Positions 1 to 63,322 of a stretch of DNA of 64,000 bases are shown piece after piece. Positions within the stretch are counted from its first letter, which is position 1; each line of letters begins with the position of its first letter. The notes below the pieces were generated by a model, which did no database searches, was not told the origin of the DNA, and worked only from the letters and a program-made list of their open reading frames with translations. The translations under genes and the position numbers were made by a program. The stretch comes from Kondoa subrosea (taxonomy: Eukaryota). The stretch spans positions 1 through 64,000 of the forward strand of contig BCIN01000001.1 of the NCBI GenBank assembly GCA_039545335.1, given 5' to 3'.

Positions 1-40
1 TAACTCTTCATAACTCTCGCTAACTCTCGCTAACTCTTCA
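1..40. repeat. Four tandem 10-bp units (TAACTCTTCA, TAACTCTCGC, TAACTCTCGC, TAACTCTTCA); candidate telomeric or satellite repeat
   Basis: Directly visible at the window start. The C-rich strand is on +, as expected for a left chromosome end. The array abuts and terminates the recombinase reading frame. Confidence 0.6.
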
Positions 41-42100: not shown

Positions 42101-42904
42101 GATGATGTTCATTTCGTTGTTGTTGTTCTCTGCTGTGTGCCGGAATTGTTCTGGTGAGATACCTTTAGCTTTACACTTGCTGATTGTTTCTGCTACTGAT
42201 TTGGGTTTAGGTGGTTCAAGCGATAAAGCTGAGAATTGTTCCTTGGCTTCTAACACAAGTCTCTTGATGAGAGCAACGCTATCCGTATGATCGCAGATGA
42301 GCTGCAAAGACTACTTAGTAGAAATCATTGTCTAAGTTGTGCACTCACAAAGTTATTTGGAATAGAGATCAGCTGTCCATGTCGGCGAAGATCTGATAGT
42401 AAGGGATAAGCAAGTTAATCAGATCGTGTCTTGCCCTCACATCTAACGCTGACGCTATGAAAGGTGCCCATGACCAATTGAGAAGTAGCTTGATCTCCGA
42501 GCATAGCTTTCAATCGCTGCCGCATTTCATTTGCTGCTTTGTTCTATGTAATTTAATATAAGCGAGGCGATCTACTACGAGGCTTAGCTTACAGTGAAGG
42601 TCACCACAATCTGCAGCGACGGATCAGAATAGCTCGTCATCCAGGCCTTTAAGAAGGGCTTACCAAGTCTTTGGGCTGGATCTTATGTTCGATGACCATT
42701 TGTGCGATTCGTGAGGTAAGCGTCCTAGTCCTATGACAGTAAAGAAGCATAGACATGAGCGAACGCTGTTGCTGCTGGAAAGGTTCATGCGATGACTGAC
42801 TTGCCAGATCCTGGACCTGCGAGAATCTGCAAAGATGCTTTTGGCGAGAAAGTGACTGCCCGTTGTTGCGCTTCATTAAGATGCGCTAGGTGAAGAGATG
42901 CCAT
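39188..42904 (-). CDS. SRS2: UvrD/REP-family DNA helicase Srs2
   Basis: LNEAQQRAV, ILAGPGS|GKT, TF|TNKAANEM, GTFH, LDFDDLL, LVDEFQDTN, VGDPDQ|SIYGWR, LEENYRS, HSAKGLEWP, LYVAMTRA. Confidence 0.93.
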
Positions 42905-43507
42905 CTTAGATCAAAGGGATCGCTACGCCGTAGCTCTAAGATCGACTATCGCGGTTCGAAAGCAAAACAAGACGAAATGGTAAACAATCGCGATATGAGT
43001 CGGAGGAGCAGTGAGCGTGCAGCCCAAATGAAATCACGCATGGCTACAAGCAGCTGACTACAGTCCAGTATCACTGCTTTCAAACAACATGCATTGGGTT
43101 GGTTTCCTAATCTACACAAACTCGAAATATCTTCCCCTAGATTCCGCCAGTTTCAGCTCCTCCGACTAGTCCACAAGTTCATCACTTTCGAAGTCCTAAG
43201 AGGACTTTCTTAAATCCATATAATCAAAGCACAGCTTAGGAGTACTGAAGGGTTACTGGATGCCGAAACAGCATGAGAGACGTGCCAGCTACCGTCAATA
43301 CTTCAGCCTTCGAAAGCAATGGAAGAATCAGAGTTACAAATATCCCTCGTTTGAGCATGCAAAACTTGTTGTTCGCAGGTATAGGTAAGAAGGCTTGTGC
43401 AGCTTGTTTAGGCGCTTTGACAAGCTGAGAGGTAAGCGATGGCAGGAGTATGATGGATTGACGCTTAGCCAGGCAATCCAAGCTCAGATTATTCCAGAGT
43501 GGTATGC

Positions 43508-44215
43508 TCAAGCCTCCGCTTTCTTCACATGCGCTCGCTTCTTCTTCGACATTCGTATCGCTTGCTTTGATTTGACTTGAGTCGACGCATCGTGTACACC
43601 TTTCCAAGGTTTGAGCTGATAGAGCTTCTTGTTCTGCCTTGCGACTTTAGGTCGGCTGACTTTGGCTAGATTTGGCAGATGAAGTAGTTTGACTTTTCGC
43701 AAGGGAATTGTGCGAAGTAACGATTGTCGACGATGCCAGGGCTTCGCAAGTATGAGCAGTGCTCAGACGGTGCGAAGAGGGAAAGACTCACCCAAGCTAC
43801 GTGACTTTGGGACTTCAGCCAATCCATGTCCACGGCTGCCTGCTCTGCTTGACTTCGCATAAGCTGCTGCTGTTCCGCTGATAGGTCCGTCACATCTCTA
43901 TACTGAGCATAAGCCACTTGCTACTACTGGACAGCCGCGCTCACAAAACTCGAGTCGACTCTTGGACCCAGTCAACGGCCGTATCTCGCAATTGGATCAC
44001 TTCAGGCTGCTTCTGATGAGAGAATAGACGGAACTCTGTGCAAGACAGTCAAATCTGAAGCGCTGAGGTCTTGAATTTGGCAGCGTACCCATTGGCTTCT
44101 CTTCTTGAACTTTACTGGCTTCATACACCACATCTTGGCTGAAAGAAGGCAACGAATTGCTCAACAAGGCTTCTAAAGCGGCCAGGCGATTGTCTTCTGC
44201 TGGATCAGAGGTCAT
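43508..44215 (-). CDS. Small basic protein resembling the fungal DUF2011 family (copy A, intact)
   Basis: Three introns. MTSDPAEDNRLAALEALL..EFRLFSHQ..QAEQAAVDMDWLKSQS..W|PW..MSKKKRAHVKKAEA*. The family assignment rests on recalled EFRLF/AAV/PW motifs only. Confidence 0.7.
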
Positions 44216-44374
44216 TGTCTGCTGTCAAAGGAAGGGACGTCCCATCAAGTCTCTGAGCCGAGCCTGGAGCCTGCCTGGCTCTTCTGGTGATAGAAATACT
44301 CTGTACGCTCATATACTCATATAACAAATGGTCCCGTGATCATTTCGCTGCTTTCTCGTTAGCTGACTCCTTGG

Positions 44375-45754
44375 ATGGCTTCAATCAGTAACCTACCAGT
44401 AGAGCTTCAAGCAGCCATTCTTTCTGAGCTACGCGGCAGTAACCCACTCAACCCCGGCTATCTTCTGCGGGGTACTATCGCTCGATGCGCTTCAGTTAGC
44501 CGTTTGTGGCACTCGCTGGCAACACCTTTGCTTTACGAGCGAGTAAATCTGGATCTCGACACAATTCCAAATATCAACAGAAGGATTACCAGAAGAAGTG
44601 CGGCTGCAGCAGCGATACCAAATCTTTTCAGCATCTTGTATCAAGACCAGAATCTTTGTGAGCATATCAAAATATTAGCGATTTACACCGAGGATCCCCT
44701 GTCGTACCAAATTGCCAACTTTTTGCAACTCTTACGATCCTGTACCAGGATTGTCCATCTTATATGTACTTCTCTTGGACCACCTCCATCGAAATCTGTC
44801 ATTTCTGCTATCCGAATGCTTTCTAGCTTGAGGACTGCATACTTTGAATATGATAACGACACCTCACCTCCATCATGCGCGGCTTTCTATACCACTTTGC
44901 TCGAAATGGCTCCGCAATTGACGGAAATGTGCTTCAACCAGTGTTTAGGAGGAGCAATGGCGACAGTGAAGTCATGCAGAGCTGCAAATGGGGTTGAGCT
45001 GGATGAAGATTCAAAGCCTGGATCTTTGCACTCCTTCCTCCGCCAATTGAAGACAGGTCAAACGCCGCTAGCAATCACGGAGTTTCAGGGTTCGCCGGAC
45101 TGTCATCTTGATTTGAGCAGACCTTGCGAGCATTTGAATACACAGTTCTTGCGCAGCTTAATTCTGGTTAATCAAGCTTTGCCAAGTACGGCGGACTGGA
45201 TACAAGCCTCGCCATTCTTGCCTGCACTTGTATCCTTGGACGTTTCCATACCCGGGGGACTACCCGCTGGAGATGTGATCCATCGCCGACATGACGAGTT
45301 CGGCCATCTCATCTCCTCCTTGGCACAAACACGCCTAAGCTCACAATTGACGAAGTTGGCTTTTGATTATGCAAGGAGAACGCAAGCAATTACACATTTT
45401 GATCCATTGCTTCGACACTTTCCGAACCTCCGTCACTGCTATATCACGACTAATTCCCGGTGCTGTCCTCAAATTGCTGGCGACTGTGCTTTCTCCGTCG
45501 ACGCCCTCACTTTGGCTGACGATGCCCCAAGAGCAGAACAACTTCAAGCTTTGTGCAAATTTGCATCCACTTTTACAGCTCAAAGGCAGTCAAGAGTCGT
45601 CGAAATCATTGTCGATCTGTGCTTCTGTCGAGGGGAGATGTTTCTGAATTTTGAAGGGGGGCAGCTTACACATCATTATGTTCCGGAATCGGATGTCTTC
45701 AGAGGCTGGAGAAGGATCTTTGGCATTAGCGAAGCCGATGATGCTGAAGCATGA
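44375..45754 (+). CDS. Intronless F-box protein with RNI/LRR-like body (copy A)
   Basis: 459-aa ORF. F-box pattern LPVELQAAIL..CASVSRLWHSLATPLLY and LxxLxL repeats (LVSLDV, FPNLRHC). Confidence 0.85.
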   Translation: MASISNLPVELQAAILSELRGSNPLNPGYLLRGTIARCASVSRLWHSLATPLLYERVNLDLDTIPNINRRITRRSAAAAAIPNLFSILYQDQNLCEHIKILAIYTEDPLSYQIANFLQLLRSCTRIVHLICTSLGPPPSKSVISAIRMLSSLRTAYFEYDNDTSPPSCAAFYTTLLEMAPQLTEMCFNQCLGGAMATVKSCRAANGVELDEDSKPGSLHSFLRQLKTGQTPLAITEFQGSPDCHLDLSRPCEHLNTQFLRSLILVNQALPSTADWIQASPFLPALVSLDVSIPGGLPAGDVIHRRHDEFGHLISSLAQTRLSSQLTKLAFDYARRTQAITHFDPLLRHFPNLRHCYITTNSRCCPQIAGDCAFSVDALTLADDAPRAEQLQALCKFASTFTAQRQSRVVEIIVDLCFCRGEMFLNFEGGQLTHHYVPESDVFRGWRRIFGISEADDAEA

Positions 45755-46231
45755 AGATGACTTTTGAGTGAGTTCGACAAGAGGGCAGATCGTAGCGTTC
45801 TGACGACAGTCTGCAGACCTGTCTGACGATCATGTATGGCTCAATATTTTGGCTGCACATTGCAATGCAATCATTGCCTGTCGCGACCGATGCGTCAGAA
45901 TCACAAATCTTACTCTTCCCTTCTACCGCCGTTCAGACTTGCTTTACACCACGAAATTAACATGCCTATTTTTCCCAGCACTTGGATCTCCAGCATATCG
46001 GGTAGAAGAAACGACACTCTTTCAACAACGCTTCTTCAATTGATTACATAAGCGTGCTTCATAGTCTCGGAGAGCAACATATGCCGTTGTATAGTACTAT
46101 CAAACCATTTTTATCTATCATAGAACATTAGTGTCAGGCCGTCGCCTCAGTATTGCCGTACTCCTCAAGTTTCTTGAATCTCAGCTTTGTCTTGTGATAG
46201 CAGCGACTTCCTCCTTCGTAGTAATTACAAG

Positions 46232-47734
46232 ATGTCAAAGACTACCAAATTCGGTATCATCTCAGCGTAAGACTTGCAGCTCTAAGCAAGTTGAGCCGCG
46301 TTGAATTGCATGACATAATAGTGCGAACATTGCTCCCAATGCCCTGATCAAGCCCTCCAAAGTAGTCTCAGGCGTTACCATCTATGGCGTCGCAGCTCGT
46401 GATCCAAAGAAAGCGGAAGCCTTTGCCAAAGAGCATGGAATAGCCAAAGTCTACCAAACCTATGACGGTAAGTCATGCTCGTCTATACTTTGCATAGTCA
46501 GCCTGATGATCCGCATATCAGAGCTCATCAATGATCCGGAGATTGATGCTATTTACAACCCTGTAAGCTGCTGATGGATGAGCGCATCTGGAGCCATTCT
46601 GACGCAGTGCAGCTACCGAACGGTCTTCACTATGAGTGGTCTCGCAAATGTATAGAAGCCAGGAAGCCTGTCTTGTTAGAGAAGCCAAGTTGCAGCAATG
46701 CGGAAGAGACACAGAAACTCTTTGATCTGGCAGTAAGTACTGCTTTTTCTATTCCTCTGGTCAACTCAACCCCAGCACAGAAAAGCAAAGGCGTTGTCCT
46801 GCTAGAAGCTCTTCACCATCGCTTTCATCCTAAACTTCACAAATTACGCGAAATCGCTCAATCCGGAAAGATTGGCGAGATCAAGCGCCTGGAAACTCGA
46901 TTCCACCTTTCACCGGCCATTGTGAAGGAAAATGATATTCGGTGGGAGTACGAACTAGCTGGTGGTGCGGTGTAAGCAAACTTTCTCTTGATCATATGTT
47001 CGTATTTCAAAACAGCACTCCAGTATGGACTTAGGGTGAGTTCAAAAGCCTTACTTACGATACAGAAACACTCAACAAGAAGTCTAGAACCTACTCAATC
47101 AGTGCTATGCGATTCATCTTGGGCACCGATCCAGTAATCCAATCAGCCCAAGCTACGGCTCACAAGCATCCAAAGATCGATAAGGAGATGAAAGCTGAGT
47201 TGTCGTTCCCGTCAGTGATGAGATTGCCTGTCGTCGCATAAGTAAAGCTAATGTCAACAAATAGTAATGGGGTAGAAGCAACTCTTGATGTCGATTTGAG
47301 CGATGATAAGTGCGAGTCTATTGAAGCTCCTATCACTGTGTATGGCTCTAAAGGATCAGTCCATCTCGATAACTTTGTGGTAAGGCAGACTTTCTCGACG
47401 AATAATCTCGCTGAAACTTGTGGTCAGGTGATCAATGGACGACCATCAAACTTATCTTTCACTTTAGAAGGCGGCGAAGCTACTTCTGTCAAGGAGTTTG
47501 ATAATATGAACGGAAACGCACTGGAATGGACTTCCTATGCCTATCAGCTTCAAGCTTTCGTCAATCGTTTGAATGGCAAAGATACTCATTACTGGATGGA
47601 GGGTCAAGATAGCATCACGCAACAGCAGGTTATCGATGCTGTCAGTATCGTTGTGCTTAATTTGAGCAATATCTGATGTCTTGGAACAGGTCTACGAGAA
47701 ATCGGGAATGGGTGCAAGACCGTCCATGCAGTGA
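46232..47734 (+). CDS. Gfo/Idh/MocA family NAD(P)-dependent oxidoreductase
   Basis: FGIISA|ANIAP, GVAARDPKKAEAFA, DPEIDAIYNP|LPNGLHYEW, VLLEKP, DIRWEYELAGGA. Confidence 0.9.
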
Positions 47735-47843
47735 GGCTATCAAATGGGCTGTACAATAGAATATGCAACGTATCTCCTTTACAGCTTGCAACTTTAACGA
47801 TCCTCAACTGCCATTAGTCAGCAAGGTTTACCTTCGACAGCCA

Positions 47844-50497
47844 ATGGAGGAAGAGGACGAGCAAGTCTATTCCTCGAGAATCAGGCGCAGACGACCTGGT
47901 AGAACTCAAGCTACTGGATCAACAATTACTCCACGCGATACTCAGACTGGAATTGCCGTTACAGCTCGAAAGCGTTTAGATGATGTTTTCGATTTCAATG
48001 AACCTCTTACACCTTTGAGCACTTCTGGATCCGACTCTCGCTCTACATCTGACGATGGTGAAGAAGAGGCTTTTTCGCTCTCTCGTTCGCCTTTATCTCC
48101 AATTCTGCCTGCAAATCAATCTCCAGCTAAACGTCGACGCAAGTCTTTTCCAGCCCGAGCAGATTTTGAGGCCGATGTAGATGATGTAGGAGTAGTAGAA
48201 CTGAATCAGCGTTTGCTTTCTTCGCGTAAGAAACCACGATGGCGCATCAAACCTTCGACTTCGGACGAAGAAGATGCTCAGAACTTAGCAGCGGATCAAG
48301 CACCACAAGTAGCGACGTCACCAGCGTATGATCTTCGTTCTCACAAAGATGCTTTACCGGATTTATATGCTGTCATGGATGCTTTGCCAGCACATGACGC
48401 AGAAGAGGAGGAAAGCGATGTTCAGCCAGCACAGGCGTCACCACCTTGGAATTTGAGTAAGCTCAGAAAGCGTCATCCTTCACAGCCAGCTGAAGAAGAA
48501 CACAGAACGAAATCAGCTCTTGACTTTGTGCCTTCAAATCATGCGAATGTGCCTTTACATGTACGCCGAGCATTTTGCCATTATATTTGAGACTGATATT
48601 CCGCGTAGCATTCGCGTCTTGATCGGATTGAGCGGGTCAAACCAAGCCATACTACTCGATTCTTGTCTCGCACTCGCCAAACTACTTTCGCCTCAGCTAC
48701 TACATCTCAAGAAGAAGTTCGGCATGCTGCTGCTGGTCATAAGCGGTTGCACGATCTATCACGGGTCCCTTATCTGGCCGTACCGCTAGGTGAAGAGGAA
48801 TTTCCACCTGAAGAAAGCAGCGACAGAAATCGTTTGCCTGCAAAAGTGAACAAGAAAGCGGCTAGAAGAAAGGCTTTTCAAGCTTCGCTTCCAACTGCCC
48901 GCTCTTTCGTTCCTTTACAACTTGTCTCCCCAAACGATCCCGATGTGAATTATCACGCTCGATGCGATCAGCCGATTGAAAGGTACGATACTGCCGAAGG
49001 ACTAAGAAATATCTGATTCTGTATCGACAGAGTTAACAACCGACCTAAGAAGATTCCACGTAAACCGCTTGCGAAAGTAGTCAATCCTCTAAAGCAGGTT
49101 CCAGCAAATCAAGCCAACCGCTTGCACGGTACTAATCCCACTGTGCCTGTGTCGCCATCTGTTCAGCTAGCTCTATCACCACTTCCAATTGCTGTACCAC
49201 TCCTTGACACTCCGCCCAGCGTTCGGCGAGAAAGGTTGGTAGACTCTGTAGAGACTGGCCGAAATAGGATTCTGGTCGAAAACACTCAGATCATGGCAGA
49301 AGAAGAGCTTGAAGCACCGTTGCAAGACGAACATGAGCCTTTTAATCCTTTTGATCAGCATCATGAACCAGAGCCTTCTGATCCACCTTTGCAAGAAGAC
49401 GTATTTATCGAACAACCTGTTTCGAACGCTCGAGCGCCCAGTCTAGCTGACGTACCAGTGACCGATGTTGATATGCGAATTGAAGAATCAGCTCAGGCCG
49501 CTAATTTTCCTGGACTAGAGATGCAGCGCTATTCGCAGTACTATCAACACCTTGCGAGATCGGATGGGCCAGCAGATATTGAGCAGCTTTTCGTCGAGGC
49601 AGAAGAGGAATTCGCTTTACTTGATCCCCATTTGGAAGAGCAATCTGTACCATCCGAAGAAGATGCATTGTCTGGTAGCGAAGAGGAACATACACCTACC
49701 GGCCCTAGTGATCCTTACAACTCTTTGTATCCTCAGATGCAAGAGTCAGAGGTAATCGCCAGATCACCGCCCAGCGCAGTGTTGGAAGAGGAATCAGGTT
49801 ATGAAGCGGATGAAGAGGCGAATCTAACTGTAGACGAGTACTTTGCTCGCTTCGGGACGGAAGATTGTCAGTCGATGAAGTACAGAGCTTGTCACTGATA
49901 TGGCTTGTAGTACCTCCTGCGGGTCAAAGCATCACTTCTGACAAGGCTCCAGCATTTGACCACCAGTCGAGAGTGCCGGAACGAGCAGTGGTCTTCAAAC
50001 AGCGCAAGAAGAGGGTGCTTTTACCTGCGAATAGTATTGTGGAAGAAGAGGAGCCGCAAGAACTGATTGGCAGAGATCTTGTACAGCCAGAGGCAGAGGA
50101 AGAAGCTGGAAATGATTTGATCCAAAATCAAGTGACCATGAAAGGTCTCGCCCAACCAACAAGAGCAGTTCAGCCGCAGCCCTTGACAATGTTTGCCGAT
50201 TCACAATTAGTTCCACATCAGCATCAGCAACAGTTGAACTCTCCTCCAGCTTGCTCTACTTCGGCTCGGACCTATCTTCGCTATCGTCGAATGGATCCCA
50301 AATCTTCTTCGCAGCCAGCTTCTACAGCTTTCTCTTTTCGCGGCGGGTTTCGAGCGGAAGTCGGTCAAAGACAGGTCGATGCAACTATGGCTCGACCTGT
50401 CGCTTTGATTACGGATGAAAGAGGTCAAAGAAAAGCTCGTGTGAGGACCATCACCACGATGCAGCGGCTAGATAGCGCTTTGAAAGGAAGCCGATAA
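47844..50497 (+). CDS. Hypothetical largely disordered acidic/Pro-rich protein with basic NLS-like motifs
   Basis: A chain of long same-strand ORFs joined by short introns. No recognisable domain. Confidence 0.65.
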
Positions 50498-50650
50498 TGG
50501 TGATGGAACGTCTGTATTGTGATCATAAGGGGGGATACCAAAATGCATCCGCTAATGCTAATGTCGCTAACGTCCACCACTGCTCCACCCTATGTAGAAT
50601 ATTGATCTGCAGTATCATCCTCTAAAACTTGCACAACGAGACTTCAGTGA

Positions 50651-53154
50651 ATGGGCAACCTGTATGGCGCTCTCTATGTCCTCAGAGTTCTCTTCAAGCC
50701 TTCCCTGCTGCTGCCACGGCTTGTGATCAAAGGTGTGTACCGAGTTGGATGACATAGGTCAAGCTGAGCGATTTCAAGATATCCGAGATTTGGACTTTCA
50801 ATGCTTGAAAGCTAAAGGCATCACTGGTCTTGTGTTCGCTTCTTTTTCATCTCTGTCCCTTTCCTTCATTTTTATGTTCCACTTTGCATAGATTCGACAA
50901 GGACAATTGTCTGGTTTGTCGATCGCAACACGAGTTTTGTCTAAGCTGAACTTACTGAAAGACGAAACCGCATGCGGATAATCTCCCGTCTGAATTGGAA
51001 GTGAGTTGTATCCCTTGATGCTCTGGACGAATCAGGCTAACATCTAATGATAGGGAGCTTGGTCTCGGATTCTCGCTACTTTCCCTGGATCCGTCCTGAT
51101 TGTCTCGAACTCTGCTGGAACCAGAGACGATGCATGTCTCATAGCTGTAAGCTGGCAAAGCGTGCTATTACAAGGTACCTCATCATAGCTTAGGCAGAAG
51201 CAGTCTCCCGATCTCTGCGCGTCCCGGTATTAGTACACTCGAAGAAGAAACCTGCGTGTGCAGCTGCAGTCATCGATTACTTCTCGAATCCTTCGCTCGA
51301 CTCTTCAAGCGCTGTCTGGCCGGATGTTATACCTATGCGCCGATTCTCTGCTGGCAAGCAAAAAATATTGGTCGTTGGCGATCGATCTATGACTGATACT
51401 GTTCTTGCGAATCGAATACATTCACCACAATTCTCCGCTGTGCCGGTTCTCACAGAGCGACTTTGGGCTGGTGAAGGATTCGGAACTGCAGTAATGCGCT
51501 TTCTGGAAGGCGCTTCACGCCGTCTACTCACCTACTCTTCTCAAAGATGGAACATACCAAAGGCACAGCTAAAGGATGATCTGGACCAATGCCTCATCAA
51601 GCCTTTGCAAACTGCTAACAGGTCAAGAGGTCGGTTAGCTGGATTTCGAGGCATGCTGACCGGCAAACTTCCTATGCTTGGTCGACGTACCATCTGGACT
51701 ACTTCAACAATCTCAAATTCTTCGCCCGAAGCTTTACTTCAAGCAGCAGAAAAACAGCTTTCTTCCTTACGACCGGAGTCCCCTGTCTTCTTTGGACTAT
51801 CCAAGAACATTCCCTCTCAGCAACTTTCTTCCTGCGTACAGCTTCTACAAAACCTGAACTGCAAAGCTGCAGTTGGTGGCTTGACAGATACACCTGCCAA
51901 TAAAGCTTTTGCTCTTTCTTTAGCAATTTGGACACCAGACTCCACTGGAAGGACAATCATTCCCTTCCGTTCTGAAATCAAGGGCAAACCGCGGATATCT
52001 TTGGGTAGAGAAGTCAAGCCAGAAGTTCAGGAAGAGCGAGATTCCCTAGATGGAAGAATCAGCGAAGGGGTCAAAGACTGGTCAGCACTGTTTGGGGCTG
52101 ATTCTATCGCTTCTCGGGCAGAGGAAGAACTCCCGCAAGCGTTGCGAGAAATCAAGTGAGTAATTCATGTTTGTGATCGCGGATCGCCTAACCTATGACT
52201 AGTCCAAGATCAATTGAACGGATCTTGTATTTCTCTGATGATGCTCCAGAAGGCTTGACGAATGTCTTCGATAGAAGATTGCCTTCTGCTTCTATAGTAA
52301 GCTCTTCTCCTTCTGCTTGAAAGGCTGCTGATATTCTCCTAGTTTGGGGTCATCGCTTCTTATACACCCTTTGTGACTGGTCGTCGAATGACTCTATTGA
52401 ATGGAAAGTCAATTTACTCTGATGGCGCAGTCGGTCTAGCTGTAGTCAACGACAATGCGCCATCTTTACCTTCTCAAGCCAAACTCGACTTTCCTGGATG
52501 GTTGACACTAGGAAATCCTTACAAGATAACAAAGTGGGTAGGCTCCTTTCAAACCATGAGCCATGTCTGACAGGAACACTAGCGCTCAAGGGAATATCAT
52601 TCTCACCTTGGCAGATCAACCTGCAGCTAGGGTTCTCCTCGACTTAGCTCAAGGTCATGCAAAGTCGCTGAAGTCATCGCTGAACAAGGAGACGGAGTAC
52701 TATGTTGGGCTTTCGAAAGCAGTATCGCAGGCAAGTTGCACTCACAATGAGCATTGCGTTACTAAGTATATTTTCAGTCCGAACCATGTTCGCCAGAGCA
52801 GGCTATCTCTATCTCTCGCGTAACCTCAGGTGATCCCTCTAGAGGGGCTATGGCAGTAGACACAGAAGATACCTTTTCGAACGGAGATTACCTACAAGTG
52901 AGTCATCTCAAAGCCTTAATCATTGTCTCTGAGCCGTTTTCTACTAGTTCTATGCTCGTGGCGAATCTACAAATGCTGGCGACAGAATTGTTTCCGACAA
53001 AGGCTTAGTCTGCATAACTTCGCCAGGCACTGTCGACAAGAACAGCAATGCTTTCCAAGTTATGTCAGAGAATGGATTCATTGTTAGTCCAGGAGGGAAG
53101 CAGAAGAGCTGGGTCTGTTCGCTTTCTGGTAGTATAACAAGGTATACGCTGTGA
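50651..53154 (+). CDS. GEP4: Mitochondrial PGP phosphatase Gep4 (HAD IIIA) fused in frame to a FIST-like protein
   Basis: Gep4 motifs FDKDNCL|TKPH, VSNSAG, KKP and VGDRSMTD. The ORF continues without a stop into FSDDAPEG, IASYTPFVTGR..SDGAVGLA, GNIILTL..PAARVL, GDPSRG..AVDT and SENGFI. Confidence 0.8.
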
Positions 53155-53185
53155 AATGCAATGTTTATTTCAATATTTATTTCTT

Positions 53186-55432
53186 CTACACCCTCTTCTC
53201 AATGACAATGGGACCTAAATACTGTCTGTTACCTTTGTACAACTTCCTCAGCATTGTATCCCCGCTCCTTGTATCGCCATTCCTTAGAAAATACTTGTGG
53301 GCCAAAGCGTAAGCTGGTTCGACTCTTGTCATCCAGTCTTGTCTATTTTTAGGTTCTGCCATCTTGTTGATCAATTCCCACATCCCTGCACTACCTAGTT
53401 GACCATATCGTAACAACGCTTCATAGTAGATAATGGCTGTGACAGGATGATCCAAATCCATTTCAGAACGAAGTATGGCGAGTCGAAACTTCCTCAAACT
53501 CCTCCAGCTCAAGCTAGCAGTCTTCAAGTAATGCCTGAGGAGGATGTTAGTCAGATCAATTCTGTCTTCAGGATGCTTCTCGATCAATTGACGAATGATA
53601 CTGAATCGGCGGTGTCTTGCGAGATTCCGAGCATAAGCGCGAAGAGTGAGAGGATGGTAGGGTTGATTCCGCATCAAAATGATAGCTTCATGAGCTGATA
53701 TTCCCAAAAGCTTTTCGACGACATATTCAGGTGAGGGATTGTCCACCGAAGATGTAGTAGTGAATCGCGCTTTTGATATTAAGACTTGCTCTTGCATCCA
53801 TTCTGTCTGCATGTCTTTGGGAAAAGAATGAATGTACCTCATATAGGGTTCGTCTAGCTTTTGCAAAGATAGAAGACAGGATTCTAGAAGAACAGAATTG
53901 AGAAGATGGGCCGCATAGCTAGCCAAGTCATTCAAAAGGTCGGCCTTGACTCTTTCTTGCATTTCGGAGAGTTCCAGCGATCGTAAAATTGCTCGACTGG
54001 ATTCCGCTATGTGGATCGAAGGAAAAGAGGGATGCTTCAGGGGATGCAATGCTTGCTCAAATTTGCCACGAGCCGCCAAGATTGCGGCAAGACTTGGAAG
54101 CAAGAGAGGTAAGAACTTGGAAGGGATCTTCTTCGTCGTCGGCGCTTTCATTTGGAGAAGCAATGTTTCAAGGGCGCCAAGAAGCAGAGGAGACATGTCT
54201 TCAGGTAGATCTTGCTCAGCGAGAAAGTTGAACCGAGCTTCTGCCTTGCTCGAGGATAAGTGTCGCTTTCCGTGAATGACCGTTTCAGCGATTACTAGGT
54301 TCGGAGTCAGAGCGTCGGCTTTCAGTGTGTTGCGGAACAAATCTTCTAGTACTTCATTTGTATTCTGCAAGAGAGATGCTGTGAAAATTTGGGCTGGAGT
54401 ACTTGCGGCTTGTGGGTAGAGAAAACCAGTTTGTAGTTCCTCCGTTGCAAAAGCAATACAATCAGCCATTGCTACTTCATTGTGCTCGCGGTTCAAATTC
54501 CGGAGAAAGGTGAAGAGCCAAGGCATATTGATCTTCTTCATCAGTTTCCAAACTACCTTTCGCGCAGATTCCAGACGGAGAAGGTCTTCTAGGTCGTGTG
54601 GATCCAGATCTTGCAGCACAGTACTTGCTCTAAGGTGATCTTGCGCGTATAATAGACCGCTAAGTATATGCAACCTTTCAATTTGACCGCATTGACATTT
54701 GCATGCCTGGTAGACTTGCAAAGCTTTAGCGGTGTTATTCTTTGCTGATTCTTTCAATGATTCGGGAAGCAGAAAGATTCTGATTAGCAGCTTGAAGATT
54801 TCCTTCTCTTTTGTCTGGCAGACGCCATCGGCATATAGCTCGAGCAGAAGAATTTGCGCTTCTTCATAGGCTGCCTGATACTCGCTGGCCTCCATAGGCG
54901 GCGTTTTACGGTACTTGAAGAAGGTGTCGATGGATTTGGACAAAGAAGGAAGAACAGTAAGAAGATATTGAGTGTCGGCAGTTGAAGGGATTTGTAATTT
55001 GGCTGCGAGAATGTCTTGAGTTGCGCTGTACAATGCGTCAAGATGATCTGATAGCCTTTCAGGGAGACTTTGAGAAGCAGAAGAAAAGGGAAGAAGAGCT
55101 GTCTCCAGCTTGGATACAGCTGCCGACAATCTGACTGGAACTGAATCTGACCAAGATTGCTCTTCTTCAGAAGATACCGCAACCTCGGAGATGTCTGCTT
55201 GTATTGGAGCAGGCTTAGACAGCTCGAGCTTAGTGAAGGCTGCAAGGCATAAATTTTGGTCAATGTCTAATTTGCTGGCAGCTTCTTCAGACCAAGACTT
55301 ACAGACATGCCGCTCGTCCGAGTATCTTCTATGTATCCCAACACCAGTTCCAGCAAGTCTCGAGGCATTCCTAGCCAGTTGCAATGGGCGTCTGCTATTT
55401 TGTGCGACCAATCTGGTGACATGTAGGCGCAT
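53186..55432 (-). CDS. 748-aa intronless Leu-rich helical protein with a mitochondrial presequence (PPR-like, unassigned)
   Basis: Arg-rich, acid-free N-terminus ending RRYS. Helical-repeat-like composition. No catalytic motif seen. Confidence 0.7.
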   Translation of the reverse strand: MRLHVTRLVAQNSRRPLQLARNASRLAGTGVGIHRRYSDERHVCKSWSEEAASKLDIDQNLCLAAFTKLELSKPAPIQADISEVAVSSEEEQSWSDSVPVRLSAAVSKLETALLPFSSASQSLPERLSDHLDALYSATQDILAAKLQIPSTADTQYLLTVLPSLSKSIDTFFKYRKTPPMEASEYQAAYEEAQILLLELYADGVCQTKEKEIFKLLIRIFLLPESLKESAKNNTAKALQVYQACKCQCGQIERLHILSGLLYAQDHLRASTVLQDLDPHDLEDLLRLESARKVVWKLMKKINMPWLFTFLRNLNREHNEVAMADCIAFATEELQTGFLYPQAASTPAQIFTASLLQNTNEVLEDLFRNTLKADALTPNLVIAETVIHGKRHLSSSKAEARFNFLAEQDLPEDMSPLLLGALETLLLQMKAPTTKKIPSKFLPLLLPSLAAILAARGKFEQALHPLKHPSFPSIHIAESSRAILRSLELSEMQERVKADLLNDLASYAAHLLNSVLLESCLLSLQKLDEPYMRYIHSFPKDMQTEWMQEQVLISKARFTTTSSVDNPSPEYVVEKLLGISAHEAIILMRNQPYHPLTLRAYARNLARHRRFSIIRQLIEKHPEDRIDLTNILLRHYLKTASLSWRSLRKFRLAILRSEMDLDHPVTAIIYYEALLRYGQLGSAGMWELINKMAEPKNRQDWMTRVEPAYALAHKYFLRNGDTRSGDTMLRKLYKGNRQYLGPIVIEKRV

Positions 55433-55579
55433 TCACTCTTGAAGCTGGACATTTGCCCTCTTGCTGATTTCTCCTCTGTGTTGCTACCTCTGATGCATCC
55501 AGGCTACAGCGGCGGTCCGGCACCAACTTGAGAGATTTATTTGTTTCCTCGCTTGTCGAGTTACGGTCGACCCTCTCAC

Positions 55580-56551
55580 ATGCTATCAGCGCCTGTCAAC
55601 GGTCATCGAGCATCGACTTTCAACAAACAAGACGCTTCTGCTGTTTACAATCTCGCTGCAGCCAATTCTCCCTTGAGTCTACAAATCCGTCATGCGCTCA
55701 AGGTGATTGATGACACTTTGGATCGATACACGTGCGCTGTCTTTGTCAAGTGTTGCACAAGTATCGTTCTCATACTTCTATCATTGACAGGAATGATGAA
55801 GTGGCAGTCTCGTTCAATGGCGGCAAAGACTGTACTGTTCTCTTGCACCTAATATGTGCCGCACTCTACCATCGTTCTGCCTCTTCTTCATCTTCTTCAT
55901 CTTCTTCTGTTCCTACACTCAATGCAATCTACGTACGCTGCGATTCTCCATTTCCTCAAGTAGAAGAATTCATTGAACTCTCTTGCGCTTACTATAATTT
56001 ATCTTTACATACCATCACATCAGATATGCGATCCGCTCTAACGACTTATCAATCAAAACTACAACCGAAAGTGAAAGCTGTCATAGTGGGAACAAGGCGG
56101 AATGATCCTCATGGCGCAGATTTAGGTGATATGAATCGAACGGATGTGGAAAAGGGTTGGCCGGATCTGATGCGCGTTCATCCTATTCTGAATTGGGGCT
56201 ATAACACTGTATGGGATTTCCTTCGAGCGGAAGAATTGGGTCGGAATGGTTCGAAAGGGATCCCGTATTGCAATTTGTATGATTATGGGTGAGTCATCTC
56301 TTTGTCTTTTTACTACATTGTCTCAGCTAGGGAACAGATACACATCACTCGGCTCTACACACAATACCTTTCCTAATCCAACATTACGCTCATCAAATCA
56401 TATTTCGCAGTATAAACCAGCTTACATGCTAGAAGATGAATCTTTAGAACGGGCAGGCAGAGAAGGAGCAAGTACAAGTGGTATCGTTATTAGAGAAGAG
56501 AATGGTGTAGAAGAAAGGATTCCGACATCACCTAGTAATGCTTCGTTGTAA
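55580..56551 (+). CDS. FAD1: FAD synthetase (PAPS reductase family)
   Basis: VSFNGGKDCTVLLHL, VGTRRNDPHG, GWPDLMRVHPILNW, YCNLYDYG|YTSLGSTHNTFPNP, ERAGR. Confidence 0.92.
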
Positions 56552-56661
56552 TCCATCTTAGGCAAAGAATTTGTAATATGTACACTAATTTGGGGTCGGT
56601 AGCAATGACCATGGCGCATGGATGAATAGACTATATTACATTACGTTTCATTTCGGAGCAA

Positions 56662-58845
56662 TCAGCTTACAACCTTTCCTAATCCTGCTAAATGTTGCAT
56701 CGGCATTGCTAAACTTTCAGCCAACCCATCGCTTGAAGGAGACGATTGTGAGTCATTTAGAATTGGCTGCTCTTGTGTTACAGATGAAGAAATGGTAGAA
56801 GGGATAGAAGTGTAATCCTGCTTTACATCAACCACCGCGGGATGCTCAATTTGAATTCGCTCAGGCTCTTGCGCTCGCATCGGCTCTTGTAAAGCTACAG
56901 TAGGCTGTTCAACGGGATGTACAGAATTTTGTCGGGAGGGTGAGCGAGATGTATGCTCTTCAGGATCAACTTTCGCTTCTTCTACTTGAGCAAGAGAAGC
57001 GAGAGGTGCTAGTTCATAGCTAGATAGAGCAGGCTATGAGGGTCTCGAATTCAGCACAGAAAGCTTACTTTAGGACACCTGACTCACACTCGCAAACGGA
57101 ACTCGATCAGAATTCGATGTCGCACTAGGCGTTACTGCATCCGTCCGTTTGTTCTCTTCTTCATCTAAATATCCATTTCTATGGGGAAACGTAGAGGCTC
57201 TGGGTGTTCGAGGATCATTGTCCATCTCATTCGGGGAAGAAGATCTGAGAATAGGTGTGACGGGTACTTGAGGATCGTCTGGTTGAGCTGCCGTAGAAGA
57301 GGAGGTAGAAGCGGGAGTGGTAGATTGCTGCGGCTGAGATTTGGCATCCTCACCACCTTTGATGATGAACTCGCTGGAGCCGATTTTGCTATCACAGAGT
57401 CGTTGAAAGCGTTCGAATTGTGCTGCTCTTCGTTCTGCGCATAGTTTGTCCTATCATAGCCGTCAATGAAAATGTAGCAGACCAGATATATTGAGCTCAC
57501 AAAAGCATCGAAGTATTGTTCATGATCCTGCAGATGGTTCAGCTTATCACGTAGAAAAGGCAGAGGCAATAGGACCCACATAGACGAAATTCAAATCGCC
57601 ACCAAACTGCTCCTCGATAAGCTGTGACGGATCGACCAGGTCTCGAGCTTCAGCGTCATCGCGAACAAAGCGGAGCTTGTCTGTCAACACAGAAGAATGC
57701 ATCAGAATGGTCTAATCTGTTCGCATCCTCGCTGACCTTTCGTCACTGGATCGATGAAGCTTTGGATCAGCTGGGAAAAGCAGTAAGCATATGTGATTCC
57801 ACGCAAAAGAGTATGCTAATTACCTTGTAGAAAGCCCAAAAGATGGTAGGCTGACAGCGACTGTCAGTTGATCCTTCCGATGCAAATCATATTACTCACT
57901 ACATCGACGCAGATAGCTCGCCCTAATCGCTCTGCGTAATACGTTTGCAGAACTTGGACGAAAAGTCAGCTTACTTTTCTACAAAGAAAAACATAGCACT
58001 CACTGTACAGTACCTGTCTCGCTTGACCCATCGAAGTTGGCTGACCACCGCCTTGCGATGCGCCGAAATCGATACATAAAGCCAAATTCTCAACACCAGG
58101 CGGCATCATGTCTACAGCTCTTTCCAAAGTCCAGACTACAAATTGAATTTGCCGAGGAGAGACTTTGGTATTCTGTCGATAAGGATGCATATAGAGACAA
58201 GGTCTAGATTGCTTGTCGAAGCCAACAACGTATTGTTTCCCCGTTCGACCTTCTTCTTCTACTTCTGGGCCAGTCAAAGTATCTGTTCCATACTATATAC
58301 GCATACGTGAGTTGAAAGAAGCCGACATAACAACAGGAAATGCTGACCTCTCTACGCCAAACCAACGTTTCTTCAACCCTCTGTATAGCTTTCTCAAGAT
58401 CCCATCTAGTAGCACGTAGACAACGTTGGATTTGCTCAGAAGTCAACCAGAATTTCTCTCTTTCAGCCAAAGGTTCCAATCCATCCTCATTGGCCAAAGT
58501 CATTACTGATGCATCCGTGCCTCTTCTGGCATGAGTAGCACCTTCAGTTCTCGCCTGTTGCTTAGCTTTGAGTTTCCAGTAGCCTTTGAGATCTTTGAGA
58601 GCGGTAGGAATAGCATAACCTGGATCAGATAAATGTCTAATGACATGTTCCAATTTTTCTTTCTGTTCTGCGTTTAAGACAGGTCTAGGAGGTGTCGATG
58701 CATTAGGTACAGGGTCTTCAATAGGTAAGACGTGGGCATTAGGGTCTGCGATGGATCCGCGTCTGCTTGTTGACCTGCTTGTGTTGGGTGAGCCAATAGG
58801 CAAGGAAGAGTTGGAGCTGTTCTTGCTACCAAATCCAAAGACCAT
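56662..58845 (-). CDS. CRAL-TRIO/Sec14 lipid transfer protein, Pdr16/Pdr17-like, with a long disordered tail
   Basis: WLTSEQIQRCLRATRWD, TLVWRRE, EGRTGKQYVVGFDKQSRPCLY, LERAVDMMPPGVE, YYAERLG, FGGDLNF. Confidence 0.85.
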
Positions 58846-59480
58846 GGTTTGTGAAGAGTGGTATAGATCCAAGTCAAGGGGTTGCTTGTTAAAGAAAAAG
58901 AGTCATCGCATGCTTTTCGGCCAAGAAAGGCCGCCAGAAGTCACAAGAATACACATGGCCCGAAACATATAGTAAGCGTCTGCCAGTCAGCGCGCCGGAT
59001 ATGCTGACGGATATGTATAAGCCAGGCCATATAATGATGCACATCAAGCAGAACAAGATTACTAAGACAAGCTGCAAGACACATTCTGAAGAGTAGCATT
59101 ATTTCCTTGCCCGCTCTTGGGACATCACATCTTCATGTCATTTCATATGTTGTTCTGAATATGAGGCTACGAGAATATGATATAATTATGTAATTCTGGA
59201 TATCAGCTGATATGATCAATGAATGAGCGTCGATATTTTCCCACCAGACCAGCTGGAATATGAGGTGTATAGGATCAAATGCATGTTGCAAGCGATGAAG
59301 AACGGTTTGGTTGCAGGGAAAACAGCATAAGAAGTAGTAGTAGATGCTTTGATGTTTGGCCGATGAAGCAGTCGGTGACTGCGTGACGCTTAGCAAAGAA
59401 TTGTATGCGCATGTCCGGTAGAAGAATGTTACAGCTTGCAGCACAGCTCGCAGGACTGTCTGACTCACAACTGAAAATTC

Positions 59481-60854
59481 TTAAATCTCAAGGTTGCCCG
59501 CTACATCAATACCCAAAAGTGTCTTCCAATCCTTCAAAGCATCTGATCCCGGTACGTTATACCAGTCCAATTTTCCGCCCTGGAAAATCATCTCCATTTC
59601 GCTTCCACAATGGCATAGCTCTACAATAACCTGAACTGTATTGGCGTCCGCTCTTGATGTGAAAATGCTTGCAAAGATGCACATCTCTCGTACTTGCTGA
59701 ACCTGAAGTATTTCTGCAGCGAGTGTCATAACGCCTCGGGAGTATGCGCAACGTCCAGCAAGCAGAGGACAGCATTGTGATCTTGTGACAAGAGAACATT
59801 TGCGCAAAATGGGAAAGTGAGAAACTAGCTGCGAGTACTTGACTTGAGGTCGAAGAGCCGTGCCGAAGTCACAATGGAATTCTTCTAATCGTAAGCTTAT
59901 CTTGGTGTCGACTAAGATAGCAAACAGCTGGCCTAGGTCATCGCTCGTCGATGGAGGAAGTTCCTGAGCTAAGGAAATATCCAAAGAGGTTAGGCAAGGT
60001 AATGAAGATGCGGCTTGGACCCAAGTCGCAGGGCTGGCCAGATCTTGAGGGAGCAGCACCAACCTGCGAAGACGTCGTATGTTGAAATTTTCACACAGCC
60101 GGCGCAAGCTATAATTCCCGAAATCCCAGTCTTGCCAGCCAGCGAATTCTTCTATCGCCAATGGAATATGTTGGTCATCCAGACAGCTTAAGAAGGAGTG
60201 TAGAGAATCGGAATGCCGATTCAGCAAGGACATTGGTAAGTCTAGGCTGTAGTCGGCTTGCATAGTCATCACCACTCCGCTTAAACGCTGATCAATCGTC
60301 AATTCTTCTAGATTGGGGGCCAAACCCAATAAAGCAGTGTAAAACGCCGTCACCAGCTGCGGCATGTCATCCTCTCCATATTCGAAATAAACCCTTTTCA
60401 AATTGGCCAAGCCTGACAAAGTGGACATGACAGATAAAGGAGGCGGATCATCATTAGACGTGCAGACGAGGTGATTGACGTTGGTACAGAATTGAAGCAA
60501 ATGCGAGAACGTGTCAACTTGAGATTGCTTTGGCCCAGTAGTGTATATGGCCAAGATCTTGATATGCCCGCAAAGCTGGCTGTTCTGTTGCAAAGTATTG
60601 AACAGGTTTGGTGAAGCCAATTCAGCTGTGGCTCTCCTTGTCACCCTTCTGTTACTATCTGGAATGCTGTCAAGGACGAGATTGACCCGTTCGTAAAGTA
60701 GAGGAGTTGCTAGTGCGTTCCACAGACGGGAGACAGATGCGCATCTTGTAATGGTGATACGGAATTGACGTTCCGGATTGAAGAGATCGCTGCCGCGTAG
60801 CTGAGAAAAAATGGCCGCCTGGAGCTCTACTGGTAGGTTACTGATTGAAGCCAT
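59481..60854 (-). CDS. Intronless F-box protein with RNI/LRR-like body (copy B)
   Basis: Starts MASISNLPVELQAAIF like copy A and is collinear with it to the C-terminus. Confidence 0.85.
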   Translation of the reverse strand: MASISNLPVELQAAIFSQLRGSDLFNPERQFRITITRCASVSRLWNALATPLLYERVNLVLDSIPDSNRRVTRRATAELASPNLFNTLQQNSQLCGHIKILAIYTTGPKQSQVDTFSHLLQFCTNVNHLVCTSNDDPPPLSVMSTLSGLANLKRVYFEYGEDDMPQLVTAFYTALLGLAPNLEELTIDQRLSGVVMTMQADYSLDLPMSLLNRHSDSLHSFLSCLDDQHIPLAIEEFAGWQDWDFGNYSLRRLCENFNIRRLRRLVLLPQDLASPATWVQAASSLPCLTSLDISLAQELPPSTSDDLGQLFAILVDTKISLRLEEFHCDFGTALRPQVKYSQLVSHFPILRKCSLVTRSQCCPLLAGRCAYSRGVMTLAAEILQVQQVREMCIFASIFTSRADANTVQVIVELCHCGSEMEMIFQGGKLDWYNVPGSDALKDWKTLLGIDVAGNLEI

Positions 60855-61014
60855 TCTGTGCAGTCTGCTAACGACAAGAATCAGCGAAATGACGTTGAAA
60901 GAAGTGTTTGTAGTAAAGGTACAAATGCACAAGCTCAATCACCAGAATATCTAGGCAGTACCAGGCCCAGTTCACCAATTTGATGAATTCCGTCCGTTCC
61001 TTTGACAGCACACA

Positions 61015-61657
61015 ATGACCTCTGATCCAGCAGAAGACAGTCGCCTGGCCGCTTTAGAAGCCTTGTTGAGCAATTCGTTGCCTTGTTTCAGCCAAGATGT
61101 GGTGTATGAAGCCAGTAAAGTGCAAGAAGAGAAGCCAATAGGTAAGCCTTGAATTTCAACACTTGAGCGCTTCAGATCTGACTTTGTTGCACAGAGTTCC
61201 GTCTATTCTCTCATCAGAAGCGGCCTGAAGTAATTCAATTGCGAGATAAGGCCGTTGACTGGGTCCAAGAGTCGACTCGAGTTTTGTGAGCGAGAGCCTC
61301 TTCAGTAGTGACAAGTGGCTCATGCTCAGCATAGAGATGTGACGGATCTATCAGCGGAAGAGCAGCAGCTTATGCGACGCCAAGCAGAGCAGGCAGCCGT
61401 GGACATGGATTGGCTGAAGTCCCAAAGTCATGTAGCTTGGGTGAGTCTCTCTTCGCACCCTCTGATACTAACTAAGCCTCGCGAAGCCCTGGCATCGTCG
61501 ACAATCATTACTTCGCACAATTCCCTTGCGAAAAGTCAAACTACTTCATCTGCCAAATCTAGCCAAAGTCAGCCGACCTAAAGTCGCAAAGCAGAACAAG
61601 AAGCTCTATCAGCTCAAACCTTGGAAAGGTGTTCATGATGTGTCGACTCAAGTCTAA
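61015..61657 (+). CDS. DUF2011-like small protein (copy B), C-terminally truncated by a premature TAA; ancestral stop at 61718-61720
   Basis: Exons are near-identical to copy A. The AAA codon of copy A reads TAA at 61655-61657. Confidence 0.7.
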
Positions 61658-62210
61658 CTAACGAAAGCAAAACGAATGTCGAAGAAAAAGCGAGCACATG
61701 TGAAGAAAGCGTTGGCTTGAGCATACGACTCTGGAATAACCAACTGAAGCTTAGATTACCTGGATAAGCCTCAATCCATCATACTGCTGCCATGGCTTGC
61801 CTCTCAGCTTGTCAAGGCGCCCAAACAAGCTACACAAGCCTTCGCAAGTATACCTGCAAACAACAAGTTTTGCATGCCCAAACGAGGGATATGTGTTGGT
61901 CTGTTCCTTTCATCACTTTCAAAGGCTGATGTATTGACAGTAGCTGGCATGTCTCTCATGCTGTTTCTGCATCCAGTAACCCTTCAGTACTCCTGAGCTG
62001 TGCTGTGATTGTATGGAGTTGAGGAAGTCCTGAAGAGAACTTCGAGAGTGGTGAAGTCGCGGACTAGTCAGAGGAGCTGAAAATGATGTGCCTCGCTTCT
62101 GTTACAAAACGACATAATGTACAATATATATGCTCCATGAACCGTGAGTGAAAGCTAATATGGCGATGTCTAGCAGTAGACCATTCATTGAGATCTTGAC
62201 GAACGCCAAA

Positions 62211-63322
62211 TCAGCTGACTTGTCTCCCATATCCATGCGCAAATGGCTTATTTGCATATCTTTCGACTTCCCTCCTTATTTGCCGATCCTTTCTTCCCTA
62301 GCAAGCGCAACGTTCTCCAAAGCTGGGGCAGTATAAGTCTGACTAGGCCTGAGAGGTAATCCAGCAGCAGGAGGAGCAGCTTCAAGCGTCGATCCTTGTT
62401 CCCCCGGTCGAGGTACAATGGTTGAACTTTCTTTCATCGCCGAGAGTTTCGCTTCGAGTGCTTTGATCTTAGCGTCCGTTCTATCCGTATATCAATCAGC
62501 GTTCTGGTAATGAGAGGTATTGAAATACTCACGAAGATGCGCGAGACTGTTTCGATAGGGATAAGAGGGTAGGTTTAGGTGGTTCTGCCTTCTTCTTTCT
62601 TGGTCCGCTCGATCGATTAAGCGCATCTAGTGGTGCCTGTCGAACGCAAGATGGAATCATCAGCTTCAAATTGATCGGCCAACCGCAAAACCGACCGCTT
62701 TTGACAATGAGACTGTCAACTTTCTCCCCCTAATCAACTTATCATTCGTTTCCACTAAAGCAGTCAAGGCTTCCTGAGGTATTGATCAGAATACTTCCCG
62801 TCGACTGCCACACTAAAACCAACTAACCTCCTTTTTATCAAATTCAACAAATGCGAACCCTCTCGGTTTGCCCTTTTGTGGACCAGCAGTATGAAAGAGA
62901 TAATCTAATTTGGTAATTTTGCCATAACGAGAGTATAATTGAACAAGAGTGTACCTAGAGTTCATCAGCATAACTTCTACTTTTGTGGTTTGATGGCTTT
63001 AACGCAACTCGTCACATGAAGGCGCTAGATTGCCTACGAACAGCTTCTTCTCGACAGTTTGAGTGGAAGCAGAGGGCATAAGGACAGCTTTGCCTTTGCC
63101 TTTCAGGTCTGACGTCGAGCGAGATGCGGCAGACAGTATTTCAGATGTAGAGGGTTCTGGAGACGCTGATATTCCCGCAATAGATGTTGCTGAGGATGTG
63201 AGACTTGGGTGAAGCGGGCTAGAGACAGAAGAGGCGTTGATAGACGAGCCCGAAAACACAACATCATGACCCTGCTCAATTTCCGCATGCTGGCCCTGCT
63301 GCTCTGCCAGATCTCCACTCAT
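62211..63322 (-). CDS. Single-RRM RNA-binding protein, RBM18-like
   Basis: KLFVGNL (RNP2), LDYLFH..GPQKGKPRGFAFVEF (RNP1), and C-terminal TDAKIKALEAKL. Confidence 0.85.

Follow-up and report, generated by a model that had tools for sequence, protein, structure and literature searches.

Inverted duplication of a divergent gene pair

The first 64,000 nucleotides of contig BCIN01000001.1 of the Kondoa subrosea assembly GCA_039545335.1 (positions 1-64000, hereafter the window; contig C1, 4.23 Mb, in an assembly of 18.9 Mb and 27 contigs) contain a ~2.6-kb unit of two genes that is present twice, in opposite orientation. Comparison of the window with itself by BLASTN returned exactly one off-diagonal match, between 43148-45721 (arm A) and 62085-59516 on the minus strand (arm B), at 72.0% identity over 2620 columns (E 0), which bears out the inverted paralogous units proposed in an earlier sequence-only reading of this DNA. 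From the outside in, each arm comprises an outer flank, a small basic gene of four exons, a divergent promoter, and an intronless gene for an F-box protein with leucine-rich repeat (LRR)-like sequence, the two genes lying head to head, as had been proposed, across a shared promoter of 159-160 bp (Table 1). Promoter homology between the arms exceeded that in 300 of 300 shuffles, and the three promoter motifs named previously are present in both arms. Positions 1-40 (+) of the window carry a degenerate telomeric repeat array of 10-base units, and the duplication sits 43-62 kb from the telomere, that is, in a subtelomeric position.

The outer edges of the repeat are sharp. Beyond the outer boundaries (43148 and 62085) identity is at chance level, with 155 of 300 shuffles reaching the observed score. 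Decayed flanks had been described on both sides of the cassette, of which the outer flank homology stands (87% identity), but the idea of a decayed gene there does not: in none of the six frames do differences favour a codon position, and two of its open frames match only the two arms genome-wide. The inner flanks (45755-46085 and 59140-59480) were likewise not confirmed, since 28 of 300 shuffles gave a local score as high as their best, and the repeat therefore ends at about the F-box stop codons. The spacer between those stop codons measures 13,726 bp and holds the six genes that had been counted (or seven, should one in-frame continuation be counted separately). A search for further copies of the cassette, with arm A as DNA and exon 4 of the small gene as protein, gave in each case two places only in the genome, both in the two arms for exon 4; the duplicated unit is non-repetitive DNA, and it encloses a single-copy block.

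The small gene was modelled in copy A as an open frame with GT-AG introns of 53, 47, and 50 nt (46-53 nt over both copies), and the two copies are 92% identical. In copy B, codon 165 (61655-61657) is an in-frame TAA, which splicing of a 39-nt GT..AG segment (61629-61667) would remove. Among the last 29 codons, 12 are changed, and because 5 of these 12 changes are synonymous the tail of copy B is not clearly dead, although this copy may be starting to decay from its 3' end.

Two ages within one repeat

Identity between the arms is strongly uneven along their length. It reaches 95%-99% in exons 1-3 and the first part of exon 4 of the small gene, falls to 84% in the last 89 bases of exon 4, and stands at 77%, 83%, and 76% in the three introns, 87% in the outer flank, and 70% in the promoter; the F-box genes are 97% identical over bases 1-33 and 61% overall. 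In sliding windows, exons (98%-100%) and introns (74%-80%) alternate such that identity tracks exon limits closely. The best stretch spans 1.07 kb at 89% identity, with perfect runs of 82, 50, 44, 43, 42, and 36 bp, the longest at 43639..43720 against 61508-61589. The sequence-only reading missed the main feature, the very different ages of the two halves, as well as the presence of several loci of this sort in the genome.

These ages are separated most clearly by silent sites. Over codons 1-155 of the small gene, synonymous divergence (dS) is 0.071 and non-synonymous divergence (dN) 0.022, with silent sites ~96% identical, while dN between the F-box genes is 0.47 and their dS has reached saturation. 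At four-fold sites, the small gene (codons 1-155) shows 3 differences among 68 positions and the F-box pair 56 among 95 (Fisher p 3e-14), and codons for the same amino acid are identical in 133 of 139 cases versus 77 of 196 (p 1e-29). Codon bias or selection as the cause of the low dS in the small gene was ruled out by the absence of bias in its four-fold base counts (19/21/24/21). The introns, promoter, and flank occupy an intermediate position: 31 of 146 aligned intron sites are changed, a higher proportion than at four-fold sites (p 0.001), yet the introns are far from saturation.

High similarity also recurs at the start of the otherwise diverged half. The two F-box copies share an identical tract of 32 bases that starts exactly at the ATG and is likely to be a conversion tract. 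All nine of codons 2-10 are the same in both copies, versus 77 of 196 beyond codon 10; at the background rate, a run of this kind has p ~2e-4 for a given place, and the longest run elsewhere is six.

Probable gene conversion between the arms

The silent-site mosaic supports gene conversion between the arms, a process that the earlier reading had named among those that inverted repeats can drive. Since silent sites of the F-box genes are saturated, the duplication must be old, and independent drift of the copies after a single duplication does not produce the mosaic of ages that repeated conversion would give, to judge from this one genome. We therefore consider that the locus probably arose when a head-to-head gene pair was duplicated locally and in inverted orientation long ago, and that it has since come under partial concerted evolution. 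In such a history, selection would have kept the small-gene exons similar enough for the arms to go on pairing, and non-allelic gene conversion, in which a break in one arm is mended with the other arm as template, would repeatedly have removed differences between them. Conversion would at times have spread beyond the exons, into introns, into the 3' flank, and over the opening 32 bases of the F-box gene, whose body would have diverged and escaped.

Concerted evolution with escape has been described in these terms, with converted tracts becoming identical and exchange stopping where substitutions and indels build up, after which copies diverge freely (PMC3924837, in the part available to us). 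The homogenized tracts and freely diverging regions seen here are alike in kind, although unlike the cases in that part of the source, the converting and the escaped regions are adjacent within one 2.6-kb unit, with the shared promoter between them.

An alternative that we regard as unlikely is a two-step history in which conversion is not ongoing: an ancient duplication of the F-box gene would have been followed, much later, by one repair event that began in F-box homology and copied the promoter, the small gene, and the flank, with the exons held by selection since then. The introns (76%-83%) and the 3' flank (87%) are broadly alike in age and far younger than the F-box body, and homology stops abruptly at the outer boundary, both of which such an event would explain. 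However, one event predicts one neutral divergence, yet four-fold sites differ by 4%, the flank by 13%, the introns by 21%, and the promoter by 30%, and the greatest divergence within the supposedly young segment is that of the promoter, which lies between the two most similar tracts.

Because identity follows exon limits (98%-100% in exon versus 74%-80% in intron windows), it could also be proposed that no exchange took place and that purifying selection on the DNA or RNA of the small-gene exons keeps their silent sites alike. We consider this improbable, as it would require constraint on nearly all silent sites of ~155 codons in the absence of codon bias, and would leave unexplained why introns and a non-coding flank are far younger than the silent sites of the F-box genes. 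Conversion templated by mRNA, considered for the same coincidence with exons, is not needed: perfect runs enter the introns by 6-8 bases, and intron interiors are homologous.

Several points nonetheless weigh against partial concerted evolution by repeated conversion. All arm comparisons come from a single genome. The small-gene exon models were drawn from splice signals only, and counts are small (7 synonymous differences over codons 1-155). The mosaic could stem from two separate copying events, or from constraint at the DNA level, with the 32-base tract serving as a promoter element of the small gene. Finally, conversion typically requires a few hundred bases of high similarity, as stated in the portion of PMC3924837 available to us, and with a longest perfect run of only 82 bp, exchange may now be slow or finished.

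The inverted duplication of the two-gene unit is real, and it is probably under partial concerted evolution, a process that is already known. Its value is that of a clean case, with conversion and escape from conversion adjacent in one 2.6-kb duplicate and with a sharp internal control (p 3e-14 between halves).

As a separate observation, CpG-type transitions between 43152-44374 and 60855-62081 are lopsided, with 14 losses in arm B versus 4 in arm A over four regions (p 0.03, in a test made after seeing the data), mostly in the flank, tail, and promoter and at 2 versus 2 in the core gene. The asymmetry is too weak to claim a signature of repeat-induced point mutation (RIP)-like activity or of methylation.

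Origin of the duplication

How the unit came to be duplicated is a question separate from its later homogenization. One candidate, to which we give somewhat less than an even chance, is an inversion scar, in which staggered breaks around the gene pair would have left a copy at each end of a 14-kb block as that block was inverted; such a scar would account for the origin and is compatible with later conversion. The staggered-break model was put forward for 17 of 29 Drosophila inversions (PMC1885836, as far as the accessible part goes), and the layout here is the one it gives: non-repetitive genes, present in two genome copies, flank a block on both sides as inverted duplicates, and homology breaks off abruptly at the outer edges (past 43148/62085, the score was matched in 155 of 300 shuffles). 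That class, however, is defined in the same part of the source by outgroup gene order, while here one genome was read, and the patchy re-homogenization of our arms would be a later process. Template switching or insertion of a copied fragment would yield the same layout without any inversion.

An inversion scar predicts an outgroup with one cassette and the gene order helicase, cassette, CRAL-TRIO gene and onward to the oxidoreductase and the gene with RRM-like motifs, or its mirror image with the cassette beside the latter gene. The genome search offers no relatives for such a comparison. Metagenome contigs gave 80 loci around homologues (34%-51% identity) of the fifth interior gene, which is FAD1-like, and at none of the 80 does a neighbour match another gene of window positions 36000-64000 or the small-gene model; only 12 of these loci exceed 8 kb, and all are distant. 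Three of them matched one 30-residue antisense peptide at E 1e-4 and were disregarded.

An assembly artefact is next to negligible as an explanation. The arms differ at 28% of sites and so are not one collapsed sequence, and among contigs from two DNA sequencing runs of one sample, which is possibly the source of the assembly, the 16 pieces listed (of 54) agree letter for letter with both arms and with the 16.4-kb interior, an agreement that is not independent, both runs being of the same sample. The search for reads listed these DNA runs and no RNA run. The listed contig pieces also show what could be said for an artefact: they break only in the small-gene region, none of the 16 spans flank, arm, and interior, and the orientation of the interior thus has no independent check.

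In both runs, the read-derived contig to the left of arm A (window 42600-43625) is deeper than the interior and right contigs (71.6 versus 54.9 and 52.1 in one run, 167.7 versus 150 and 145.5 in the other). The left repeat boundary (43148) itself lies ~245 bp upstream of the ATG (42904) of a UvrD-family helicase gene, probably by coincidence.

Possible inversion of the interior

It had been proposed that a crossover in the small-gene exons would flip the interior, both F-box genes included. This geometry is correct, as such an exchange would invert 16.9-18.0 kb and leave all genes whole. The closest known system is the flip/flop (FF) region of Saccharomyces chromosome XIV, where, in the part of PMC9731477 accessible to us, repeats of 4.2 kb are almost identical and homogenized by conversion, inversion is treated as a by-product, and no flip was seen in ~53,800 mitoses and 950 meioses. 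By the mechanism discussed there, a small share of conversion events between our arms might likewise end as crossovers, inverting the 17-18-kb interior with its genes unbroken; flips, if any, would be a rare by-product on an evolutionary time scale and not a regulated switch.

By analogy, the locus appears to work like the Saccharomyces FF repeats, with ordinary single-copy genes lying between inverted copies of a two-gene unit, a crossover that would leave genes whole, and, to judge here from the silent-site mosaic, probable homogenization by non-allelic gene conversion. It differs in near-identity. Those repeats are near-identical throughout their 4.2 kb, lie near the centromere, and are documented in both orientations (PMC9731477, in the part cited above), whereas our arms are 72% identical overall, reach 89% over ~1.07 kb with an 82-bp perfect run, are saturated in the F-box half, are subtelomeric, and are known from one orientation in one sample. 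With a best stretch of 1.07 kb at 89%, the flip rate should be lower here than in the FF region.

A segregating inversion polymorphism, recurrently re-created as in Saccharomyces and with both orientations present among strains today, is doubtful. In its favour, the two arms face opposite ways at a distance of 14 kb and share 89% identity over 1.07 kb, crossover geometry spares every gene, and recurrent inversion is derived from conversion between such repeats in the accessible part of PMC9731477. Set against this are the 11% of differences within that 1.07 kb and its longest run of 82 bp, as opposed to 4.2 kb of almost identical sequence, and no joint between the arms was found among the contig pieces listed from either run, although contigs of one sample cannot show orientation or exclude such a joint. 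One contig joins 42779 to 45210 with 22 letters on the short side; this does not link the arms and was disregarded. Were the polymorphism to exist, inversion would bring each divergent promoter, together with its F-box gene, next to either the full-length or the TAA-carrying small-gene tail, swapping which promoter drives which tail, and expression would then depend on orientation.

A programmed switch, either a mating-type-like flip/flop or the placement of genes under telomeric silencing, is very improbable, even though the locus lies 43-62 kb from a telomere and is bounded by gene-containing inverted repeats. Genome searches place pheromone-receptor (STE3) matches at 2.43 and 2.75 Mb on contig C1 and on C4, and a Homeobox_KN match above cut-off on C11, so that neither type of gene is found in or near the block, which was rejected as a mating-type locus. 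The four interior genes with a Pfam match are of housekeeping types (the other two have no Pfam match), the repeats are far from identical, and a flip would shift genes by at most 18 kb. In Ogataea polymorpha, mating-type switching operates by flip/flop of a 19-kb block, similar in size and likewise bounded by inverted repeats (PMC5720833, in the part available); unlike that block, the present one has no MAT genes, and its repeats are diverged.

The four STE3-family loci are at C1:2428923-2429234, C1:2745580-2746218, C4:50728-51777, and C4:1439329-1440384. The two on C1 are ~316 kb apart and in opposite orientation, which could bear on the mating system.

Other inverted repeats in the genome

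Three more inverted repeats were found on contig C1 (L099 2124-6522, L100 2558-7623, and L101 2653-7020), of 543 bp at 91%, 943 bp at 89%, and 592 bp at 91% identity, respectively, with perfect runs of 311, 73, and 269 bp lying as near-perfect cores inside more diverged edges, a pattern that lends support to the conversion reading of the present locus. Further inverted repeats make the present locus less singular and raise the question of a lineage-wide tendency. It is conceivable, though we think it unlikely, that the gene-containing inverted repeats of this 18.9-Mb genome are all refreshed by conversion and form a genome-wide set of small, damage-free, recurrently invertible blocks. In S. 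cerevisiae, by comparison, a single inversion polymorphism is common. If the other inverted repeats behave alike and several vary in orientation, they would provide a direct test of the repeat length and similarity needed for conversion and inversion to go on, and of why homogenized repeats persist, a question left open in the part of PMC9731477 available to us. A literature search on inverted repeats, inversion, and gene conversion in Pucciniomycotina returned, among the titles listed, only papers on mating-type loci, which does not establish absence from print, and one on quantitative limits of recombination between diverged inverted repeats returned only a phage paper.

Genes of the arms, interior, and flanks

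Table 1. Positions of annotated features in the window, with strand and supporting detail
Feature	Position	Strand	Details
UvrD-family helicase, outer left neighbour	41201..42904	-	PF00580, PF13361; ATG at 42904, gene extends leftwards
Arm A of inverted duplication	43148..45721	+	Self-comparison, alignment
Outer 3' flank of small gene A	43152..43510		87% identity with 61718-62081; no sign of coding
Small basic gene, copy A	43511..44215	-	Exons 44215-44089, 44035-43945, 43897-43792, 43741-43511; 184 codons
Shared divergent promoter A	44216..44374		159 bp; 70% identical to promoter B, in conserved blocks
Tract identical between F-box copies	44375..44406	+	32 bases from the ATG; partner 60854-60823; likely conversion tract
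F-box + LRR-like gene, copy A, intronless	44375..45754	+	459 aa; PF12937 E 1.2e-6
Interior gene 1, Gfo/Idh/MocA oxidoreductase	46232..47734	+	PF01408, PF22725; ends read by eye
Interior gene 2, low-complexity acidic protein	47763..50497	+	No Pfam match
Interior gene 3, PGP-phosphatase-like front, then in-frame second unmatched region	50660..53154	+	PF09419 E 0.012, below curated cut-off; ends approximate
Interior gene 4, 748-aa open reading frame	53186..55432	-	No Pfam match
Interior gene 5, PAPS-reductase-domain gene	55580..56551	+	PF01507 E 2e-10
Interior gene 6, CRAL-TRIO protein	56700..58845	-	PF03765 E 7e-8; 3' end approximate
F-box + LRR-like gene, copy B, intronless	59481..60854	-	457 aa; PF12937 E 8.5e-8
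Arm B of inverted duplication	59516..62085	-	Self-comparison, alignment
Shared divergent promoter B	60855..61014		160 bp
Small basic gene, copy B	61015..61717	+	Exons 61015-61141, 61195-61285, 61335-61440, 61487-61717
Outer 3' flank of small gene B	61718..62081		Partner of 43152-43510
Outer right neighbour gene	62274..63322	-	Stop ~190 bp past arm B boundary; first exon without Pfam match

Both F-box proteins, which are 46% identical to each other, have an N-terminal PF12937 match above the curated cut-off, and copy B has in addition a weak LRR_14 match below cut-off. The predicted structure of copy A, built from a five-sequence alignment, consists of repeated helix-strand units (mean predicted local distance difference test score, pLDDT, of 67), and Foldseek placed F-box/LRR chains of SCF complexes, SKP2 and TIR1, at the top of its matches, with template modelling (TM) scores of 0.26-0.37 for the top five. 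With moderate confidence, the model suggests a C-terminal leucine-rich solenoid in copy A. The N-terminal PF12937 match together with this predicted solenoid would resemble substrate receptors of the SKP2 and TIR1 type; unlike these, the family here is lineage-restricted and intronless, with no sequence relative found outside this genome, and the TM-scores are low. No homologue of copy A was found among 5853 candidates at E<=0.001, none of 248 pattern matches of the F-box alignment to metagenome contigs was confirmed, and a PDB sequence search matched nothing real. Look-alike stretches were sought in the other windows examined and none was found, and a literature search for intronless F-box expansions in basidiomycetes gave nothing.

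The same F-box/LRR-like family occurs as a tandem array of at least three intronless genes on contig C2 (~2981800-2987200; L005, L006). Copy A is 19%-23% identical to the three C2 paralogues versus 46% to copy B, so that the two arm copies are far more similar to each other than to any of the three. As called, the first gene of the array lacks most of the F-box motif, and an unrelated 258-aa open reading frame lies between the second and the third.

The small gene had been labelled DUF2011, a label that we could not confirm: its four exons, scanned separately (29-76 aa), have no Pfam match at E<=10. A search of the genome with the PF09428 profile gave no candidate, but a control was equally silent, so this result is uninformative, and DUF2011 was not found in the literature searched. 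The small-gene model may resemble DUF2011 in short motifs. Exon 4 has no homologue among 23 longer candidates at E<=1, and against 1.84 billion representatives it gave one marginal match (E 8.6e-4, 24 residues), taken as chance.

Pfam matches were obtained for four of the six interior genes. In the third, the PGP-phosphatase-like frame runs without a stop into ~190 more codons (window 51194-52159) that resemble the start of another, FIST-like protein and have no Pfam match, representing either a gene fusion or two abutting genes. Of the neighbours outside the arms, the helicase on the left is presumably Srs2-like, and the gene on the right has RRM-like motifs. One conserved gene of the window has its best named matches in Mixia (77%) and rust fungi (74%-75%), which suggests a basidiomycete of Pucciniomycotina type without a close relative in the collections searched.

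The telomeric array at the start of the window is made of two alternating 10-base units and was also found at four of seven other contig ends examined (L103, L104, L105, and L108), a departure from the six-base repeat usual in fungal telomeres. Just past the right end of the window, a weak direct repeat (L007 2508-2651 and 4832-4973) is 63% identical over 149 columns.

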